Assembly: GCA_020631955.1 (NCBI GenBank)
Contig: JACKGL010000004.1
Span: 25,811-89,810 of the forward strand
Length of the DNA: 64,000 nucleotides
Direction of reading: 5' to 3'
DNA from: Candidatus Nomurabacteria bacterium
Lineage (GTDB): Bacteria; Patescibacteriota; Minisyncoccia; Phycocordibacterales; UBA9973
In this document: piece after piece, positions 3,221 through 58,734 of the stretch
How the letters are laid out: each line of letters opens with the position of its first letter
Position numbering within the stretch: position 1 is the first letter of the stretch
Notes under the pieces: model-generated
What the model saw: the letters and a program-made list of their open reading frames with translations, nothing else
What the model was told of the DNA's origin: nothing
Databases searched by the model: none
Position numbers and translations under genes: made by a program

Positions 3221-3631
3221 ATGTCGCTTTCATTAATACTACTTCTAATAACATTTGCTCTGACCTGTTTTATCGTGGGTAAAAAAACTTACCTTCTAAG
3301 AACAGGTAAACTAGACCTTTATCATGAAGAGCGTCCTTGGAGAGTGTCCCATGAAGCTAGAAAGCTATATAAGGTCTTGGCTTTCATAGGAAAAAGAATA
3401 TTCAAATCACTCATATTCTCTCTAGGAAAACTCTACGTCACAGTAGAGCATAGAGTAAAGAAATTCCTCCAGGCAAAGTTCCCAAAGTACTTCAAAGAAA
3501 AAGAGGTTGTATCTCAAAAACCTTCTTTCTTCATAAGTACTATGCAAGAATATAAAGTAAGAATGAGGAGACACAAGAAGACGATCCAAGAAAAAGAGAA
3601 GGATTTTGAGGAAGAAGACGTTGTTGATTAG
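3221..3631 (+). CDS. hypothetical protein with N-terminal TM helix and basic C-terminus
   Basis: 136-aa ORF with hydrophobic N-terminus (LILLLITFALTCFIVG); no recognisable domain. Confidence 0.4.
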   Translation: MSLSLILLLITFALTCFIVGKKTYLLRTGKLDLYHEERPWRVSHEARKLYKVLAFIGKRIFKSLIFSLGKLYVTVEHRVKKFLQAKFPKYFKEKEVVSQKPSFFISTMQEYKVRMRRHKKTIQEKEKDFEEEDVVD

Positions 3632-3741
3632 ATTTGAGTTTTCTGGTAGTATACCTCTACGTTTGCCGGAATACCCGCCAGAACGACTTCATGTCGGGCT
3701 GGGCTCAGTCGGTAGACAAAGTTTGGTAAATAAGATTAAAA

Positions 3742-52467: not shown

Positions 52468-52585
52468 TCATAGTTTTTTTCTTTCTGCGGGCCACTCGGG
52501 TTAAGTAGCCCACAGCTCCAAGCTCCATAAGGATTTCTGAGGAATATTTTGAAAACTAGATTCAGGTATGTGGGTCGCAATATAT
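52468..52585 (+). repeat. cassette-boundary repeat R-a
   Basis: Shares ttttttcttNNtgcgggcca...gggtt.agta...taagg...tgtgggtc with R-b. Confidence 0.55.
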
Positions 52586-52588
52586 TGT

Positions 52589-53626
52589 TTAGAATTCAGC
52601 AAAGATTCGTTTTTCCGAAGAGATAATTCTGACTTTTCTCCCATAAGGCAAGCAGATTTGTGGGTTGGTGTGGCCAAAATCCATATTTTGAATTACTGGA
52701 ACAGTTTTATTATACTCTCTTATTACTTTTAAGATCTTACCACGTTGCTCTTTTCTGTATGAAGATTTTTGACCTGCTGAATTTTGTTCTTTAAAACTCC
52801 ATGCTTGTGGTCTTCCAACAAGAACCCCTTTTACACGTTCAAGAATACCTCGTTCACCAAGGGCTCGATACACACGCTTAACATAATCACTAGATGGTAT
52901 TTCCTCTGATGTTTCAGTGATAAGGATAATATTTTCAAATTGATCAAGAGCTGGAATCTTCGCCCCATGTCGTAACAGCTCATCAATGGATTCCAAACAT
53001 CCGCCCCAAGTAATTCCATCAGTATTAATATTGCCGTCCCAATACCAACCGTCATTTTCTTCATATATTCGTTCTTCGTTTAATTTTGAAATATCATCCC
53101 AGCCTAATCCTATATCATTATATACTGGACTTGGCTCCAGCTCGAATTCACCATTATCAAAAAGAGCATGCTTTATATATTTTATAGTGTATTCGTCCAT
53201 TCTCTTTTGCATGCCAAATTGAGTAAACAAAGATGCTCCATAGAACGAAGGAATTCCATTGAGCCAAAGAAAATTTGCAAAATGAGTATTATCACTAAAT
53301 CCGAAAAAAGGTTTTGGATTATCGATAAAAGGCTCCGACGGTAAATTCTTTATATATGTTATTTGATCATCTCCACCAAGCGAAGCAATGACGGCTTTTA
53401 TATCATTTTGAATAAAGCTGTCTATTAAATCTTTCGAACGTTCCTCTTTAGAAGCACCAAGTTTTGAGGTAACTGAAAATTCTACAGGTTCTAGCTCAAA
53501 GACTTCTCGAACCCTTTTAAGGGCAAGTTCATATACATGCGGCCACTTTCCTGGGGCAGCAAAAGATGGTGACACAATACCAACTTTGTCACCAGGGTTA
53601 AGTTTTGATAATTTACTGAAATTCAT
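52589..53626 (-). CDS. LD-carboxypeptidase (S66 family, LdcA/MccF-like)
   Basis: GFSDNTHF (Ser nucleophile), DFGHTNP. Confidence 0.7.
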   Translation of the reverse strand: MNFSKLSKLNPGDKVGIVSPSFAAPGKWPHVYELALKRVREVFELEPVEFSVTSKLGASKEERSKDLIDSFIQNDIKAVIASLGGDDQITYIKNLPSEPFIDNPKPFFGFSDNTHFANFLWLNGIPSFYGASLFTQFGMQKRMDEYTIKYIKHALFDNGEFELEPSPVYNDIGLGWDDISKLNEERIYEENDGWYWDGNINTDGITWGGCLESIDELLRHGAKIPALDQFENIILITETSEEIPSSDYVKRVYRALGERGILERVKGVLVGRPQAWSFKEQNSAGQKSSYRKEQRGKILKVIREYNKTVPVIQNMDFGHTNPQICLPYGRKVRIISSEKRIFAEF

Positions 53627-53660
53627 ATATTTTTATTTTAACTTAATCTAAACAAAAAAG

Positions 53661-53785
53661 GTATCTGGGTCAGACCGATACTTTTTTCTTAGTGCGGGCC
53701 ATGTGGGTTCAGTACCAGAGTAGTGAGACACCGTAAGGGTTATTTAGGAAAAATTCAGACACTAATTTGAGGCTTGTGGGTCATA
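53661..53785 (+). repeat. cassette-boundary repeat R-b
   Basis: Homologous to R-a along its length, and to R-c in its 5' part (ctgggtcagaccgatactt...tgcgg). Confidence 0.55.
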
Positions 53786-53850
53786 TAGAGAAATATTGAC
53801 ATAATATATAAATTATGATAAAATGATAGAGAACCAAAAATTAAGAAACA

Positions 53851-54363
53851 ATGAAAGTACTTTTATTAGAGGATAATCCTCAAAATATCGAAAGCTTAAA
53901 AACGGCAATTTTAACTGCCTGCCCTAATGCTGACATTACTGTATTAACAGAAGTAGGAGCTTCTTTTTACAAAGGTTCCGAATACAACGAGGCTGTGCAA
54001 TTAGCCTCGTATGATGCTGTAATAACAGATGTAAACATGCCTGGCTATACTGACCGTGATGGCATGATAATGAGCCCAATTGGACCTATTATTGCCTTAA
54101 AGGCATTACAGCAAGGAGTTAAAAGAATTGCCGTTTTGACGGATGCCAACCACCATGAAGCCAGCCCGATTTCAAAATCGGCTGATCTTTTCCGGGGTTT
54201 TCACTCGGAACTTGGATTTAATGGTGACTGTGTTATTGGTGACATAAAATTATATTATGAAAACACTAATAAGCTTAATACCAAGTATCAAACAGACACC
54301 TTGAGATGGCTCTTTAGTGAAACTAAAGACAGGGTTGTAGATTGGTTGAAAAAAAATCCGTAA
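53851..54363 (+). CDS. stand-alone response-regulator receiver (REC) domain protein with unknown C-terminal extension
   Basis: MKVLLLEDN..., DAVITDVNMPG (phospho-acceptor Asp context). Confidence 0.55.
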   Translation: MKVLLLEDNPQNIESLKTAILTACPNADITVLTEVGASFYKGSEYNEAVQLASYDAVITDVNMPGYTDRDGMIMSPIGPIIALKALQQGVKRIAVLTDANHHEASPISKSADLFRGFHSELGFNGDCVIGDIKLYYENTNKLNTKYQTDTLRWLFSETKDRVVDWLKKNP

Positions 54364-54375
54364 GGATAATAACAA

Positions 54376-54408
54376 AAGGTCTCTCAAATTTTCGAGAGGC
54401 CTTTTTTA
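54376..54408 (+). terminator. rho-independent terminator
   Basis: ggtctctcaaattttcgagaggcc then tttttt. Confidence 0.5.
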
Positions 54409-54412
54409 TTTT

Positions 54413-54454
54413 GAGACATGTGGGTCACTCCGATACTTAGTTCTCTTTGCGGTG
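54413..54454 (+). repeat. truncated boundary repeat R-c (interrupted by IR1-L after ...ttgcgg)
   Basis: catgtgggtcactccgatacttagttctctttgcgg aligns with the 5' part of R-b. Confidence 0.5.
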
Positions 54455-54640
54455 TTTATTGGACAAAGTTCGAAACTATTTCGAGCAAAATCCAAACGAT
54501 TAATGCGGACTCGGCAGGGCGAAACAATTTGTCTGAGGGAAAGGATTCGCCCTGCCTCGGCTGTTTTCCCGCCCGCAGGAGGGGTCTGGGGAGGAATGCG
54601 GGCGGGTTTCGGACTGGGGGTTTTCGGAAATTCGGCAGCT
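54450..54640 (+). repeat. IR1-L (~191 bp, GC-rich, contains two strong internal hairpins)
   Basis: Reverse complement matches 56824..57014 over every stretch I compared. Confidence 0.8.
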
Positions 54641-54649
54641 AATAAAAAT

Positions 54650-55129
54650 CTAACACAAAAAATACAATCCAAGTAGTGCGTAGATTATTCCGAACACCCA
54701 CGGAATAATCAACTCGATGTGTGAAAATGGATAGTATTTTTTGTTATCCTCGCCCTTACCCAAAACTTCCCATTCGTATTTATACAAAGCGAGTGGTAAA
54801 TATTCCTCGATTTTGTGAACAACAGCAAACTTCCCAGTGTTTAATTGTTTGTATGACCTAATGAGATACCAAAAAACTACACAAACAATTATTCCGACAA
54901 GGGCGAGGATTGATTTTACAAATGATAGATTTTCAAAAATCTTAATTTGAAAAGATAATCCTATGAGCGAGATAAGAGCAGTATTTATCGTAATAAAATA
55001 ATTATTTGCGTGTTGTCGTCTGTCGCTCGTTTTTTCTATGCTCTCAACATAAAGTTTATACTGCTCAAATAAGTGTTCTTTGTAGTCGTTTCCGTAATCT
55101 TTTTCATTTTTTGAAAATAAATCGCTCAT
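54650..55129 (-). CDS. small 3-TM membrane protein (candidate pore/effector component)
   Basis: 159 aa; soluble N-region then TM helices at ~53-68, 85-101, 139-158; last gene of operon, abuts IR1-L. Confidence 0.5.
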   Translation of the reverse strand: MSDLFSKNEKDYGNDYKEHLFEQYKLYVESIEKTSDRRQHANNYFITINTALISLIGLSFQIKIFENLSFVKSILALVGIIVCVVFWYLIRSYKQLNTGKFAVVHKIEEYLPLALYKYEWEVLGKGEDNKKYYPFSHIELIIPWVFGIIYALLGLYFLC

Positions 55130-55133
55130 AGGA

Positions 55134-55535
55134 TTATCTGTTGCCTTTCAAAAGCAAGCCAACATTTTCCCAAGTCCAGTTATACATTTTGTCAGTGGTT
55201 TTTACTCCGACTGGGAATGTGCAATTCTTATTACTTCTGCCTTTGATAAGAAAATATGGCTTGCCTAATTCTTGGGCAATTTTTATTTCTTCCGTAACTC
55301 CTTTTGCTGTGTGTGTCCATTCACCGCAAATCACGACGACCTGTTGAGCATTTATTATTTTCTGCTTAACTTTTGCTTTCCAATCACCCAACAACGCTTG
55401 TTTGACTGACAAGTCGCTTATTTCAAAAGGAGTGTCGTCGTGTTTTGCTTGTCCGACAAAAAGATGTTTCAAATCCTCGTCGTGATCAAAATCAAAACTG
55501 ACGAATACTTTTGTTTTTGTGCCGTAGTAAGTCAT
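55134..55535 (-). CDS. TIR-like (DUF1863/ThsB-like) domain protein
   Basis: KVFVSFDFDHDEDLKHLF (TIR beta-A/DUF1863 N-motif) and QQVVVICGEWTHTAKGVTEEIKIAQELGKPYFLI, which parallels ThsB VTCVLIGSQTFNRRWVRYEIMKSIEKGNKIIGI including the conserved Glu. Confidence 0.6.
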   Translation of the reverse strand: MTYYGTKTKVFVSFDFDHDEDLKHLFVGQAKHDDTPFEISDLSVKQALLGDWKAKVKQKIINAQQVVVICGEWTHTAKGVTEEIKIAQELGKPYFLIKGRSNKNCTFPVGVKTTDKMYNWTWENVGLLLKGNR

Positions 55536-55542
55536 AAATTAT

Positions 55543-56505
55543 TTACTCAAAGAATTTTCCAAGCCACCCACCAACAATACTTTGTGCAAATGCAATAACT
55601 TGCACAATCACAAAAATCAAAAATGGGTTTATATCTACAAACCAACTAACAACCCACGAAAGGAGAAGTGTCAGAAGTAAAGAGATAACAAATCCTTTTG
55701 TTTTTGAAATTTTTGGTTCAACTTCTTTTTTTGTTGGTTCATCTTTTTTATCGAGTAGTTTTTGGATATATTCAACTATTTCATCACTACTTTTAAATTC
55801 TATTTCAGAAATGCCAACATAACTTGAAGATTTTTCATCAAAAAGCGATTTATTAAAATCCTCAACATATTTCAGTTTCTTGCCATAAGCAGAATCATCA
55901 CGCTTCTCTTTCGGCAAATCCCAATATGCTTCACTCTCTTTCTTTTCTGATTCATTATCTGGATACCAAATACTCATTCCATAGTCGCCTGTATGGATTT
56001 CCAAGCCATGAGAGTCTTTTTTTACAAGTTCTTTTACTTTAGCAACGCCATCTTTAATTCTCTCTATGGATTGACGCAAAAACCTTCGATATTCATCTTT
56101 TGAGATTATTTCTGGATGTTTCGATAAAATGTATAAATTAACTTCATAATTTCCAAAAATTGGTACTTTAGACCAAACAACTTCTTTTTTTAGACTTTCA
56201 ATTCTGTCAGGCATGACAAAATCTTTTTTCTTGATTTCGGACTCCAAAACAACGCCGTCTTTTATTGAATGGTCTGTTCCACCTACAAAATCATGATAAA
56301 GCTCTATTGTCCGCATCTTTAAATCAATAGGATCATCTGAAATTTTATACTCAATTGTGGAATAGTTATGATGATAATCATCATTAATGCTCACATCTAT
56401 CTTAATTTTTTTCTCACTAGGGAAAAACTCAAAAGTGTTCGTTGTATGTTCATCGTTTATGACGATTGAATTTTCATCATCAAAAATTTCTACTTCTTTT
56501 TTCAT
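55543..56505 (-). CDS. hypothetical protein, ~270-aa soluble N-domain plus C-terminal 2-TM domain
   Basis: C-terminal hydrophobic helices GFVISLLLTLLLSWVVSWFV and FLIFVIVQVIAFAQSIVGGWL. Confidence 0.5.
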   Translation of the reverse strand: MKKEVEIFDDENSIVINDEHTTNTFEFFPSEKKIKIDVSINDDYHHNYSTIEYKISDDPIDLKMRTIELYHDFVGGTDHSIKDGVVLESEIKKKDFVMPDRIESLKKEVVWSKVPIFGNYEVNLYILSKHPEIISKDEYRRFLRQSIERIKDGVAKVKELVKKDSHGLEIHTGDYGMSIWYPDNESEKKESEAYWDLPKEKRDDSAYGKKLKYVEDFNKSLFDEKSSSYVGISEIEFKSSDEIVEYIQKLLDKKDEPTKKEVEPKISKTKGFVISLLLTLLLSWVVSWFVDINPFLIFVIVQVIAFAQSIVGGWLGKFFE

Positions 56506-56517
56506 AAGTTTAAAAAA

Positions 56518-56724
56518 TTATTTTAATAAATCCTCCATAGGAACGCCTAACGACTTGGCGATTTTTTGGATTGTTTGAACGCTTGGTTTCGTAACAACAC
56601 CACCCTCAATTTTTGTCAGGGTAGAGTATTTTATGTCCGCTTTTTTCGCCAAGTCATCTTGGGTCAATCCTTGTTTTGTTCGTATTCGTTTTATGTTTTC
56701 TGATATAGTTGCCATAGTATCCAA
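56518..56724 (-). CDS. XRE-family helix-turn-helix transcriptional regulator
   Basis: IKRIRTKQGLTQDDLAKKADIKYSTLTKIEGG is a Cro/C1-type HTH. Confidence 0.7.
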   Translation of the reverse strand: MDTMATISENIKRIRTKQGLTQDDLAKKADIKYSTLTKIEGGVVTKPSVQTIQKIAKSLGVPMEDLLK

Positions 56725-56823
56725 ATTTTGATAGTATTATCTTATGAGAAGATTCTTTCTTTGCTCACAAAACAATGATAGCAAAAATTATGGATTTATT
56801 CAATATGTATTTTCTGATTTTGT

Positions 56824-57014
56824 AGCTGCCGAATTTCCGAAAACCCCCAGTCCGAAACCCGCCCGCATTCCTCCCCAGACCCCTCCTGCGGGCGGGAAAA
56901 CAGCCGAGGCAGGGCGAATCCTTTCCCTCAGACAAATTGTTTCGCCCTGCCGAGTCCGCATTAATCGTTTGGATTTTGCTCGAAATAGTTTCGAACTTTG
57001 TCCAATAAACACCG
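56824..57014 (-). repeat. IR1-R (inverted copy of IR1-L)
   Basis: See IR1-L. Confidence 0.8.
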
Positions 57015-57131
57015 CCAAAATTCGGAATTCAAATTTCCGCCAAAAATATGGTCGGCGCGAAGCGCCGTCTGTTCTGCATTCCCCCCACAAAATCCTGATT
57101 CTGCAAGGATTCGCCACGCTCCGCGTGGCTC
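57012..57131 (+). repeat. IR2-L (~120 bp), immediately abutting IR1-R
   Basis: Reverse complement matches 58533..58652; contains palindrome cggaattcaaatttccg. Confidence 0.75.
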
Positions 57132-57155
57132 CTCGTTTGCCAATACAAAAACAAT

Positions 57156-58500
57156 ATGAATAATCACACCAGAAAGTTTTTTATCTATACTCGTAAATCT
57201 ACCGATACAGAAGATCGGCAAGTTAGAAGCATTTCGGACCAATTGGCCGAATTGAAATCTCTTGCACTCAAAGAGAATATTGAGGTTGTAGATATTTTTG
57301 TAGAAAAACAAACCGCCAAGATTCCGGGTCGGCCAGTATTTGACGAAATGCTTCTTCGTATCGAGCAAAATGAGGCAAATGGAATTTTAGCGTGGCATCC
57401 TGACAGATTAGCGAGAAATAGTGTTGATGGTGGAAAAATTATCTATTTGCTCGATACGGGGAAAATTGCCGAACTTAAGTTTCCAACTTTCTGGTGTGAT
57501 ACGACACCGCAAGGAAAATTCATGCTCTCAATCGCTTTTTCGCAATCCAAGTATTATGTGGACAATCTAAGCGAGAATATCAAGCGTGGTAAGCGGAACA
57601 AAGTGAAAGACGGAATATGGCCTCAAATGTCTCCACTCGGATATATGAACAAGGGTGGAAAAATTGTTGTTGATGAAAATATCGCACCTTTAATCAAGAA
57701 AACATTTGAGGCATATTCGTCTGGGTCTTTCACTTTGCGCCAACTTCGTGACAAATTTAACGAACTTGGATTGAAGCGAAAAAGCGGAAAGGAACTTGCG
57801 GTGTCGAATTATCAAAAACTTTTGAAAAATCCGATATACACTGGTTTGATGCTGTATAACGGCGAAATCCACGAGGGCAAGCATGAACCGATTATCACAA
57901 AGAAACTTTTTGATTCCGTTCAGGAAGTGATGATGAGGAAATCTAAACCTCACTCGAAAGGTCTAAAACCATTTTGTACAGAGGATTTTTCCGTTGTGGA
58001 GAATGTGGCTGTTTCATTACCACCGAAACACAAAAAGGACATAACTATTTGCGATGTACCAAACGGAAAAATCCTTGCTCACAAAAAATACACTCGTGAG
58101 GAAATCATCACTTCCGAAATTCAAAAAGAAATCAAAAAGTTTCTTTGCCAGACGATTGGGCTAAATGGATGTTGGCGGAAAACGAAAAAGATAAATTGGT
58201 GGAAACCCAATCGTCTACGCTTTTTAGGATAAGACAAAAGCCGATATTTCTCTCTTGATTCCAAGATTGAGAAGCTGATGAATGCTTACCTAGAAAACGC
58301 ACTTTCACTAGAGGAGTATCGAGATGCTAAAAGTGCGTTGGTCAATCAAAAACAGCTTCTCAAAGAGAAATTATCGGCTTTTGAGCAAAAAGGGAATAAT
58401 CGGTTCGAACTTACGGAAAAGTTTTTGAAATACAATATAGAATTGGCAAACGAGGGAATAAATGAAGAGAAACTTCATTTATTCAAAAAAGTCGGTTCGA
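57156..58500 (+). pseudogene. large serine recombinase (resolvase/integrase family), disrupted
   Basis: N-terminal catalytic domain (YTRKSTDTEDRQVRSISDQ..., GILAWHPDRLARN) and recombinase domain present; canonical zinc-ribbon FRCGECGCFITTETQKGHNYLRC is readable only in the -1 frame around 57977..58090; in-frame TAA at 58230 before the coiled-coil C-terminal part. Confidence 0.6.
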
Positions 58501-58532
58501 ACTTTATTATTGAAGCTCGAACCGTACTTTTT

Positions 58533-58652
58533 GAGCCACGCGGAGCGTGGCGAATCCTTGCAGAATCAGGATTTTGTGGGGGGAATGCAGAACAGACGGC
58601 GCTTCGCGCCGACCATATTTTTGGCGGAAATTTGAATTCCGAATTTTGGCGG
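58533..58652 (-). repeat. IR2-R (inverted copy of IR2-L), last bases overlap tRNA-Ser 3' end/CCA
   Basis: See IR2-L. Confidence 0.75.
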
Positions 58653-58734
58653 AGACGGAGGGATTCGAACCCTCGGTGGTGTGACCCACACACGCTTTCC
58701 AAGCGTGCGCACTAGACCGCTATGCGACGTCTCC
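58650..58734 (-). tRNA. tRNA-Ser (anticodon GGA), type II with long variable arm; CCA encoded at 58647..58649
   Basis: Reverse complement folds as GGAGACG acceptor, 3-bp D-stem, anticodon stem CACGC/GCGTG with loop TTGGAAA, 16-nt variable arm, T-arm GAGGG-TTCGAAT-CCCTC. Confidence 0.8.

Follow-up and report, generated by a model that had tools for sequence, protein, structure and literature searches.

Inverted repeats around a TIR operon in a Candidatus Nomurabacteria genome: a probable serine recombinase element with exchangeable cargo at tRNA-Ser

Genes and repeats at the tRNA-Ser locus

The DNA analyzed here, referred to as the window, is a stretch of 64,000 nucleotides from a Candidatus Nomurabacteria genome (GCA_020631955.1, contig JACKGL010000004.1, positions 25,811 to 89,810). 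It contains an operon of four genes, coding for a TIR-domain protein, two membrane proteins, and a helix-turn-helix (HTH) regulator, that lies between long inverted repeats. To its right are the gene of a large serine recombinase (LSR) and a tRNA-Ser gene. The operon, the repeats, and the LSR gene make up a segment that we call element E. An earlier reading made from the letters alone, the sequence-only reading, had assigned the repeats to the operon. The features are listed below by window position, and related loci in other assemblies carry L numbers.

54453..58648, no strand: element E, 4.2 kb, with the layout A-cargo-A'-core-B-LSR-B'-core-tRNA-Ser; missing in L007, with the same layout in L103, L016, L032, L077, and others
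54449..54452, plus strand: core S3, GCGG, the attL-type junction of cassette M1 and arm A; (G)CGG precedes 67 of 69 copies of the arm-A end in metagenome loci
54453..54641, plus strand: arm A; its first ~51 nt hold the native 17-codon LSR tail (RCLLDKVRNYFEQNPND, then a stop codon) and a P'-type half-site, with two GC-rich hairpins after them
54650..55129, minus strand: 159-aa membrane protein, Pfam 8xMP (PF24838, "octameric membrane protein family") at 2e-43; putative Thoeris-like effector
55134..55535, minus strand: ThsB-type TIR protein, 133 aa, Pfam ThsB_TIR at 4e-7 (30.7 bits against a cut-off of 21.2)
55543..56505, minus strand: 320-aa protein without a match in Pfam or PADLOC; it has two membrane helices near its C-terminus
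56518..56724, minus strand: XRE-family HTH regulator at the start of the cargo operon, Pfam HTH_3 at 9e-17
56725..56822, no strand: AT-rich region with the promoter-like site of the operon, inside the bracket
56823..57011, minus strand: arm A', the inverted copy of A
57012..57015, minus strand: core S4, CCGC; A', this core, and B together repeat the whole attP-like B'-GCGG-A junction in inverted form
57016..57131, plus strand: arm B, directly upstream of the LSR gene; it is a spare copy, inverted, of the ~40 LSR codons that precede the core
57156..58652, plus strand: LSR pseudogene, Pfam Resolvase at 9e-20 and Recombinase at 6e-15; its frame would run into tRNA-Ser as far as 58715
58533..58648, plus strand: arm B', a P-type arm that codes for the C-terminal part of the LSR
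58649..58652, plus strand: core S5, GCGG, the attR-type junction with the tRNA 3' end (CCGCCA, minus strand)
58647..58734, minus strand: tRNA-Ser (GGA), the proposed integration target, found with ARAGORN and Rfam

A repeat scan of the window placed the outer inverted repeat at 54446-54646 and 56818-57018 (201 nt, 99% identity). Its arms do not differ at any position across 193 nt (54449-54641 and 56823-57015), and the lone mismatch, at 54448/57016, falls just beyond the GCGG core. The sequence-only reading had described identical, G+C-rich repeats of about 191 bp, each with two long internal hairpins, around four co-directional genes on the minus strand, and this description holds. The A arms have 52-53% G+C, the window as a whole has 36.9%, and the segment between the arms has 33%. 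Folding confirmed both hairpins, with z = -5.7 for one strand and z = -3.1 for the opposite strand. The loops of these large hairpins exceed the limit of the simple terminator scan that was used, so they went unscored; lying past the LSR stop codon, they may act as terminators or stabilizers. A consensus fold of 23 type-(i) A arms kept the hairpin sequence with almost no covariation, which makes it uninformative on structure. A known structured RNA was also considered for the arms and was dropped after Rfam scans that gave no match at the gathering score or at E <= 10. Both window A arms have a 9-nt deletion that is absent from relatives.

A second inverted repeat, which the earlier reading did not include, adjoins the right A arm. 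It lies at 57012-57131 and 58533-58652 (120 nt, 100% identity) and encloses the LSR gene, whose 3' end enters tRNA-Ser. The middle block of the element, 56818-57131, consists of A' and B, the reverse complements of A and B', respectively. One core stands at every junction, as GCGG or inverted as CCGC: flank-GCGG-A, A'-CCGC-B, and B'-GCGG-tRNA. On the minus strand, the middle junction reads B'-GCGG-A, which is the junction expected in a circle made from the A-to-B' segment.

Left flanks were compared by looking up the protein encoded just left of arm A in other assemblies. In L007, which comes from another sample, 1671 nt of left flank are present at 100% identity and join at 54452 straight to the 3' end of tRNA-Ser. 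The segment 54453-58648 is absent from this near-identical strain, which has the empty site. The earlier proposal that the unit is mobile at the tRNA-Ser locus is therefore borne out by a comparison of relatives for its presence and absence. The window has the junction types tRNA-B, A'-B, and A'-flank, and L007 supplies the fourth, the empty site. The flank-A junction was also found in L003, L004, and L006, three contigs from other samples.

The half-sites of attP and attB in serine integrases are offset by 5 bp. A TTCGAA motif is located 17-22 nt from the core in the element arm (54453-54474) versus 12-17 nt in the tRNA arm (58653-58670), a 5-bp shift that would fit this offset.

A collapsed or mis-joined repeat is an extremely improbable source of the repeats. 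Many related contigs stop within the arms, so the repeats do break assemblies, but none of the four junctions is missing for either repeat. In L001, an independent Logan contig, exactly this operon is found with 30 nt of repeat at either end, and the same layout, each time with element-specific arms, is found in independent JGI, ENA, NCBI, and Logan assemblies. The assembly artefact that the sequence-only reading had allowed for can be set aside on these grounds.

The recombinase gene and its attachment site

The LSR of the window has a resolvase domain (PF00239, 8.6e-20, residues 9-154), with the active-site serine in a YTRKST motif near the N-terminus, and a Recombinase domain (PF07508, 6.4e-15). 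The zinc-ribbon/coiled-coil part is represented by a zinc-ribbon motif, CGECGC...YLRCTK, which is frameshifted in the window and matches Zn_ribbon_recom in intact relatives. The protein is ~27% identical to TP901-1 Int, and its matches in the PDB were the SPbeta and A118 integrases. Within the large serine recombinase family, it is an ordinary member.

The gene is broken in the window. Compared to the intact genes of L077, L020, and L032, it has five single-base indels at approximately 57971, 58083, 58133, 58226, and 58256, while LSRs are intact at 485-520 aa in L077, L032, L049, and L030. All five indels fall within ~290 nt (57971-58256), and the other ~1200 nt of the gene and the neighboring genes are free of indels. 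The cluster could reflect real decay or a local sequence-quality problem.

A single frame crosses B', the core, and A in 21 of 24 junctions. From GAGCCACGCGGAGCGTGG (EPRGAW) through the last base of the core it spans exactly 120 nt, and in the same junctions it adds 17-18 codons in A (RCLLDKVR(N/M)YFE(Q/L)NP..) before a stop. The native LSR tail reads …FWRCLLDKVRMFFEQNPND. Across tail codons 9-17, variation by codon position was 1.69/1.83/3.84, highest at the third position by about twofold. Because the frame crosses the core in these junctions and the tail varies at third positions, the alignments show the LSR gene of intact relatives to span its own attachment site, with its last ~57 codons running through B' and GCGG into the first ~50 nt of A. 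By the same comparison, the ~314 bp of A', core, and B are shown to be an inverted spare copy of the LSR 3' end and putative attP, immediately upstream of the LSR gene. This spare copy explains both inverted repeats. The arms are thus the duplicated 3' end and attP region of the neighboring LSR gene, and the same arms hold unrelated cargo elsewhere, so the earlier assignment of the repeats to the TIR operon does not stand.

The element has many relatives. The outer 20 nt of A (TGTTTATTGGACAAAGTTCG) occur in 68 metagenome loci. GTDB species genomes contain 23 loci with the same sequence, nearly all from the candidate phyla radiation (CPR)/Patescibacteria; the scanned viral contigs gave 0 matches. 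The CPR hosts are Saccharibacteria, Nomura-, Zambryski-, Yanofsky-, Buchanan-, Komeili-, and Moraniibacteria, and Paceibacterota; the window genome itself is a Candidatus Nomurabacteria. The A'-core-B-LSR-B' layout was found again at 75-92% nucleotide identity and is present in dozens of metagenome and CPR genome contigs. The distance from the end of A' to the LSR start is 140-142 nt in 22 related loci, and the 10 related loci that extend past the LSR 3' end all have an antisense tRNA-Ser there. L089 has an LSR of 41% identity in the same layout, with its own 134-nt repeat of unrelated sequence that is 97% identical between arms. The persistence of the layout at this distance indicates that the design is old and maintained.

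The arms of these elements are shown by alignment to evolve in concert, as they are more alike within an element than between elements. Within a locus, the B arms are always 120 nt and 94-100% identical and the A arms are ~200 nt and 82-100% identical, while the same arms are 75-93% identical between loci. The sequence-only reading had taken perfect repeat identity as a sign of very recent mobility or of ongoing homogenization. The concerted pattern supports homogenization; recent mobility fits poorly with an LSR that has five frameshifts. Since the window LSR has five indels despite perfect arms, perfect identity is no sign of recent recombinase activity.

Taken together, we consider it likely that the repeats are the duplicated attP/3'-end block of an LSR element that targets tRNA-Ser and that the TIR operon is its exchangeable cargo. 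The LSR would act at the 3' end of the tRNA-Ser gene (CCGCCA), with crossover at GCGG. Of the predicted attP x attB recombination by the LSR, the sequences show the occupied and empty sites and their shared GCGG core. On integration at the core, A would move to the far end (attL) and B' would stay at the tRNA (attR), and A and A' would thereby enclose the cargo bay, with B and B' on either side of the LSR. Cargo would be swapped and flipped through recombination in the arms, which recombination or gene conversion would keep alike. The window element may now be immobile by itself, its arms held identical through gene conversion.

Several points weigh against this interpretation. Despite the 120-nt repeats, a flipped LSR segment was seen in none of 22 loci, and excised circles or attP-only molecules were not seen either. 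All activity of the LSR is deduced, as is the crossover dinucleotide, and the defense activity and signaling of TIR and 8xMP are predicted. With a dead LSR and perfect arms, arm identity requires a process that does not depend on the recombinase. The codon-position test found no third-position excess in B' (6.45/7.25/6.93), and the coding status of B' comes solely from its always-kept frame and length. B' is probably a weakly constrained tail that is constrained as DNA too.

Two related loci have further remnants beside tRNA ends. L103 contains a second tRNA 3'-end remnant (GGTACAAATCCCGGAGTCTCCGCCA) at 2384-2460, between tRNA-Ser(TGA) and arm B, which resembles a scar left by a previous integration there. 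Downstream of cassette M1 in L005 (GCA_020428615.1), positions 3557-3725 hold a tRNA-like 3' fragment and then an unrelated GC-rich hairpin block (CCCCCTCTCCCCCACA...TGTGGGGGAGAGGG). GC-rich hairpin blocks beside tRNA-end cores may be a general feature of several CPR element families.

Cargo exchange and the spare copy

Most of the 23 repeat-bracketed modules open with an XRE HTH gene of 65-90 aa followed by unrelated genes. These include N6_N4 and D12 methylases with partner genes, Mrr, GmrSD with HNH, an OLD-like ATPase, Shedu SduA, a cyclodipeptide synthase, and ABC and P-type transporters. The HTH of L094 is 98.5% identical to that of the window, but it stands ahead of Mrr and another gene. 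This suggests that the HTH and promoter region behave as backbone and the remainder as exchangeable cargo. The family moves defense and accessory genes between CPR bacteria at near-identical sequence, and reading between the arms is a way to harvest candidate defense systems from CPR metagenomes.

Cargo is also found in both orientations. L106 and L110, from sister samples, share the same SmpB-tmRNA site and a cargo that is 100% identical over 4170 nt in opposite orientation. This cargo contains HTH, a TaqI-type restriction-modification (R-M) system, TIR, and 8xMP beside the tmRNA gene, and it sits between 210-nt GC-rich repeats of another family (L106 2439-2648 and 6491-6697) with no LSR nearby. 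In the A-type family, L066 and L070 have their cargo reversed with respect to the LSR. About eleven other A-type loci are arranged as in the window, with the HTH adjoining the A'-B junction and divergent from the LSR. The inversion between repeats that the earlier reading had proposed is thus seen in related elements.

Such inversion would also be expected if the repeats were an invertible or transposable bracket owned by the TIR operon, either a phase switch or a composite transposon of a four-gene Thoeris-like system, and the TIR+8xMP pair is indeed mobile and widespread. A promoter-like site (TTGAAT-17-TATCAT plus TG, minus strand, 56803-56775) and the regulator lie inside the bracket, however, so flipping would leave expression unswitched. 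The arms are LSR coding sequence with downstream hairpins, and they hold unrelated cargo in other loci. There is no transposase in 54647-56817, and the flanks share only the GCGG core, inverted, which does not suit a composite transposon or insertion sequence. An LSR of ~500 aa, together with the internal promoter-like site and coding arms, does not fit a Gin/Hin/Cin-type serine-invertase switch, nor do a serine-type recombinase and cassette ends that are LSR half-sites beside GCGG fit an integron. The TIR pair is also found between other repeat families and in ordinary chromosomal contexts. We regard an operon-owned bracket as highly improbable.

If the repeats belong to the LSR element, as we prefer, the spare copy could have several mutually compatible roles: a switch of the LSR, a circle like that of the 2-micron plasmid, an operator for autoregulation, or homology arms for cargo exchange. 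As a self-locking switch, integration would replace the 17-aa tail with tRNA-encoded residues, and inversion or gene conversion between B and B' would re-arm the LSR; through this rare event, the LSR body would again be joined to the intact tail that A' preserves. Several observations agree with a switch: the frame crosses the core, the tail differs between the B'-A and B'-tRNA contexts, and the layout persists where LSR identity is as low as 41%. In every checkable locus, the LSR frame continues into the tRNA, the proposed locked state; an active state would be brief and rarely assembled. The same 22 loci without a flipped LSR segment argue against the switch, though. Tail conservation may also reflect a role as a DNA half-site instead of any need of the tail for LSR activity. 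We therefore think such a switch unlikely. It is likewise doubtful that the spare copy is a CPR-specific device, conserved from 41% to 100% LSR identity, in which a self-switching integrase is combined with a repeat-flanked bay that shuffles defense cargo.

L028 was considered as a flipped LSR segment and ruled out, since its left arm is a divergent A type and two tandem elements explain the locus better. Its LSR lies between a divergent A-type arm pair around an 830-nt cargo on the left (tail RCILKIARTEF...) and a standard A arm on the right (1-1008, 1015-2784). In this tandem, the first LSR apparently regains a native-like tail from the second element.

The excised form could also resemble the yeast 2-micron plasmid, as a circle in which the cargo and LSR segments are parted by two inverted attP blocks and which flips or integrates through either block. 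The chromosomal repeats would then be the footprint of the circle design. This geometry follows directly from the integrated layout, and cargo does occur in both orientations relative to the LSR. Yet no circular form was found, viral contigs were without matches, and the cargo has no replication gene. Equal use of both sites would give both LSR orientations at the tRNA, and only one is seen. A circle of this kind seems to us quite improbable.

To the left of the element are two cassettes that carry only cargo:

52491..53697, no strand: cassette M0, LD-carboxypeptidase, cargo-only, GCGG-bounded
53698..54452, no strand: cassette M1, 170-aa protein with a weak response-regulator match, cargo-only, GCGG-bounded

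The direct repeats D1-D3 delimit M0 and M1 at spacings of 1207 and 755 nt, and the ends of the two cassettes are similar (left, GCCAYNYGGGTTMAGTA; right, GGGTCA..CCGATACTT..TTCT..TGCGG). M1 is found at 99-100% identity in L002, L005, L007, and L009, with other left neighbors and with its right end against the 3' ends of different tRNA genes. In L002, it adjoins a different LSR, of 40% identity. From these positions, M1 looks like an independently mobile satellite cassette. The block 53851-54445 had been read as chromosome in the attB/attP comparison, and this was revised because that block, M1, is itself mobile.

The TIR and 8xMP pair and known systems

The sequence-only reading had identified the third operon protein as a TIR protein. 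The ThsB_TIR profile match, above its cut-off, confirms this, as does a match to PDB 8fz9 'TIR' (E = 0.0012); the glutamate of the TEEI motif aligns with the catalytic glutamate in the KEV motif of a Thoeris TIR. The window TIR is 57-62% identical to TIRs paired with Peptidase_C14 or 8xMP elsewhere, including 57-59% to P0360 and P0381, both beside Peptidase_C14 (a type IV Thoeris context). Near-identical motifs are shared with the TIRs of cluster 2635319349, 'Caspase - Type IV' (Table S1, bioRxiv 10.64898/2025.12.03.692087). These alignments place the window TIR in the clade of type IV, caspase-associated Thoeris. No Peptidase_C14 effector was found in or near the operon. BLASTP gave no alignment between the window TIR and a type VII (SLATT-linked) TIR, and the PADLOC matches were all weak. 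SLATT, DUF2270, Macro, and SLOG profiles had no match at E <= 0.1, and 8xMP is the sole Pfam family of the putative effector above its cut-off.

In all contexts examined (the window, L103-L115, and L118), the 8xMP gene directly follows the TIR gene. The other neighbors change: a 320- or 325-aa protein in the window and L103, the TaqI-type R-M in L105-L110, a methylase and a 348-aa protein in L111-L115, and Lipase_3 in L118, a non-CPR contig of 194 kb. Other genes take the place of the 320-aa gene in L105-L115, and a homologue of that gene (88% nucleotide identity) is present in L002 without TIR or 8xMP. The constant pair, its changing neighbors, and the separate 320-aa gene in L002 indicate that TIR+8xMP is the conserved unit. 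The four genes had been proposed as one system; instead, the HTH belongs to the backbone and the 320-aa gene is replaceable. The earlier suggestion that the membrane proteins are the effectors survives in part, as the three-helix 8xMP protein, always after the TIR, is a likely effector and the 320-aa protein is not a constant partner.

8xMP forms more than 120 clusters at at least 79% identity across CPR, and the family as a whole forms 2,747 clusters at 50% clustering. Its AlphaFold2 model is all-helical (pLDDT 96) and had no meaningful match among solved structures by sequence, profile, or Foldseek search. Ten longer 8xMP homologues were checked and none had a TIR fusion. A literature search for 8xMP, octameric membrane protein, and PF24838 found nothing relevant. 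8xMP is probably a membrane effector that has been swapped in, and gene context leads us to predict that TIR+8xMP is a new member or variant of the Thoeris-like systems. The TIR would make an ADP-ribose (ADPR)-derived signal on infection, and 8xMP oligomers would then damage the membrane. For TIR immunity, this adds 8xMP as a candidate effector tied to a TIR clade otherwise paired with caspase-like proteases.

In an alphaproteobacterial genome (L116/L117, 2975-4390), a Peptidase_C14 gene is preceded by a TIR homologue and two more TIR genes (TIR_2 and ThsB_TIR). The L116 copy of this Peptidase_C14 gene is interrupted by a Y1 transposase gene of the IS200/IS605 type.

CPR/Patescibacteria have tiny genomes and few characterized mobile elements, and the present family spans many CPR classes. 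Its serine integrases are compact and have the tRNA-Ser 3' end as a defined, conserved target, and its cargo bays are naturally modular, which could interest genome engineers. The window LSR resembles the serine integrases of TP901-1, A118, and SPbeta in its resolvase and recombinase domains, its zinc ribbon, and its short sites with a small common core. It differs from known serine integrase elements in that the recombinase gene spans attP and has a ~314-bp inverted spare copy upstream. No directionality factor was identified in the element. We know of no serine integrase element with an attP-spanning gene and an inverted spare copy, and a literature search found no description of an LSR gene that spans attP or of a conserved inverted spare copy that brackets gene and cargo. 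This layout looks undescribed.

Some parts of the layout have parallels. Mycobacteriophages reportedly use integration-dependent gene truncation, with attP inside the repressor gene. As there, the attachment site of the window element lies in coding sequence and integration would alter the C-terminus of the protein, but here the gene is that of the recombinase itself and a spare 3' end is kept. In the yeast 2-micron plasmid (FLP/FRT) and in invertase systems (Gin, Cin, Hin, PinQ), inverted repeats with recombination sites likewise part the recombinase gene from a second segment, and segments are found both ways round. In contrast to these, the window recombinase is of the large serine integrase type, neither a tyrosine FLP nor a small invertase; the element is integrated at a tRNA gene, and no LSR segment was seen in flipped form.

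Tycheposons are small islands at the 3' side of tRNA and tmRNA genes that carry defense or niche cargo, and newer insertions displace older ones from the tRNA and leave degenerate remnants (bioRxiv 10.1101/2020.12.28.424599). The window shows a similar accretion of M0, M1, and E, with the older cassettes farther from the tRNA. Tycheposons mostly have tyrosine recombinases and direct partial-tRNA repeats at their flanks, with no long inverted repeats described around cargo or recombinase (bioRxiv 10.1101/2020.12.28.424599), and the hosts of the present elements, unlike theirs, are CPR bacteria.

Membrane effectors are already reported for Thoeris. DUF2270 in type V and SLATT in type VII have been validated, a "3TM" class is untested, and effector swaps within a TIR clade have been used to predict new Thoeris effectors (bioRxiv 10.64898/2025.12.03.692087). 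The earlier statement that a TIR with membrane effectors is not a described Thoeris architecture is therefore outdated. 8xMP may or may not correspond to the '3TM' class of that study. The effector in the window is Pfam 8xMP and not DUF2270, SLATT, Macro, SLOG, or a caspase. In common with Thoeris types IV, V, and VII, the window has a ThsB-type TIR gene directly before its partner, and its TIR clade is that of the caspase-linked type IV.

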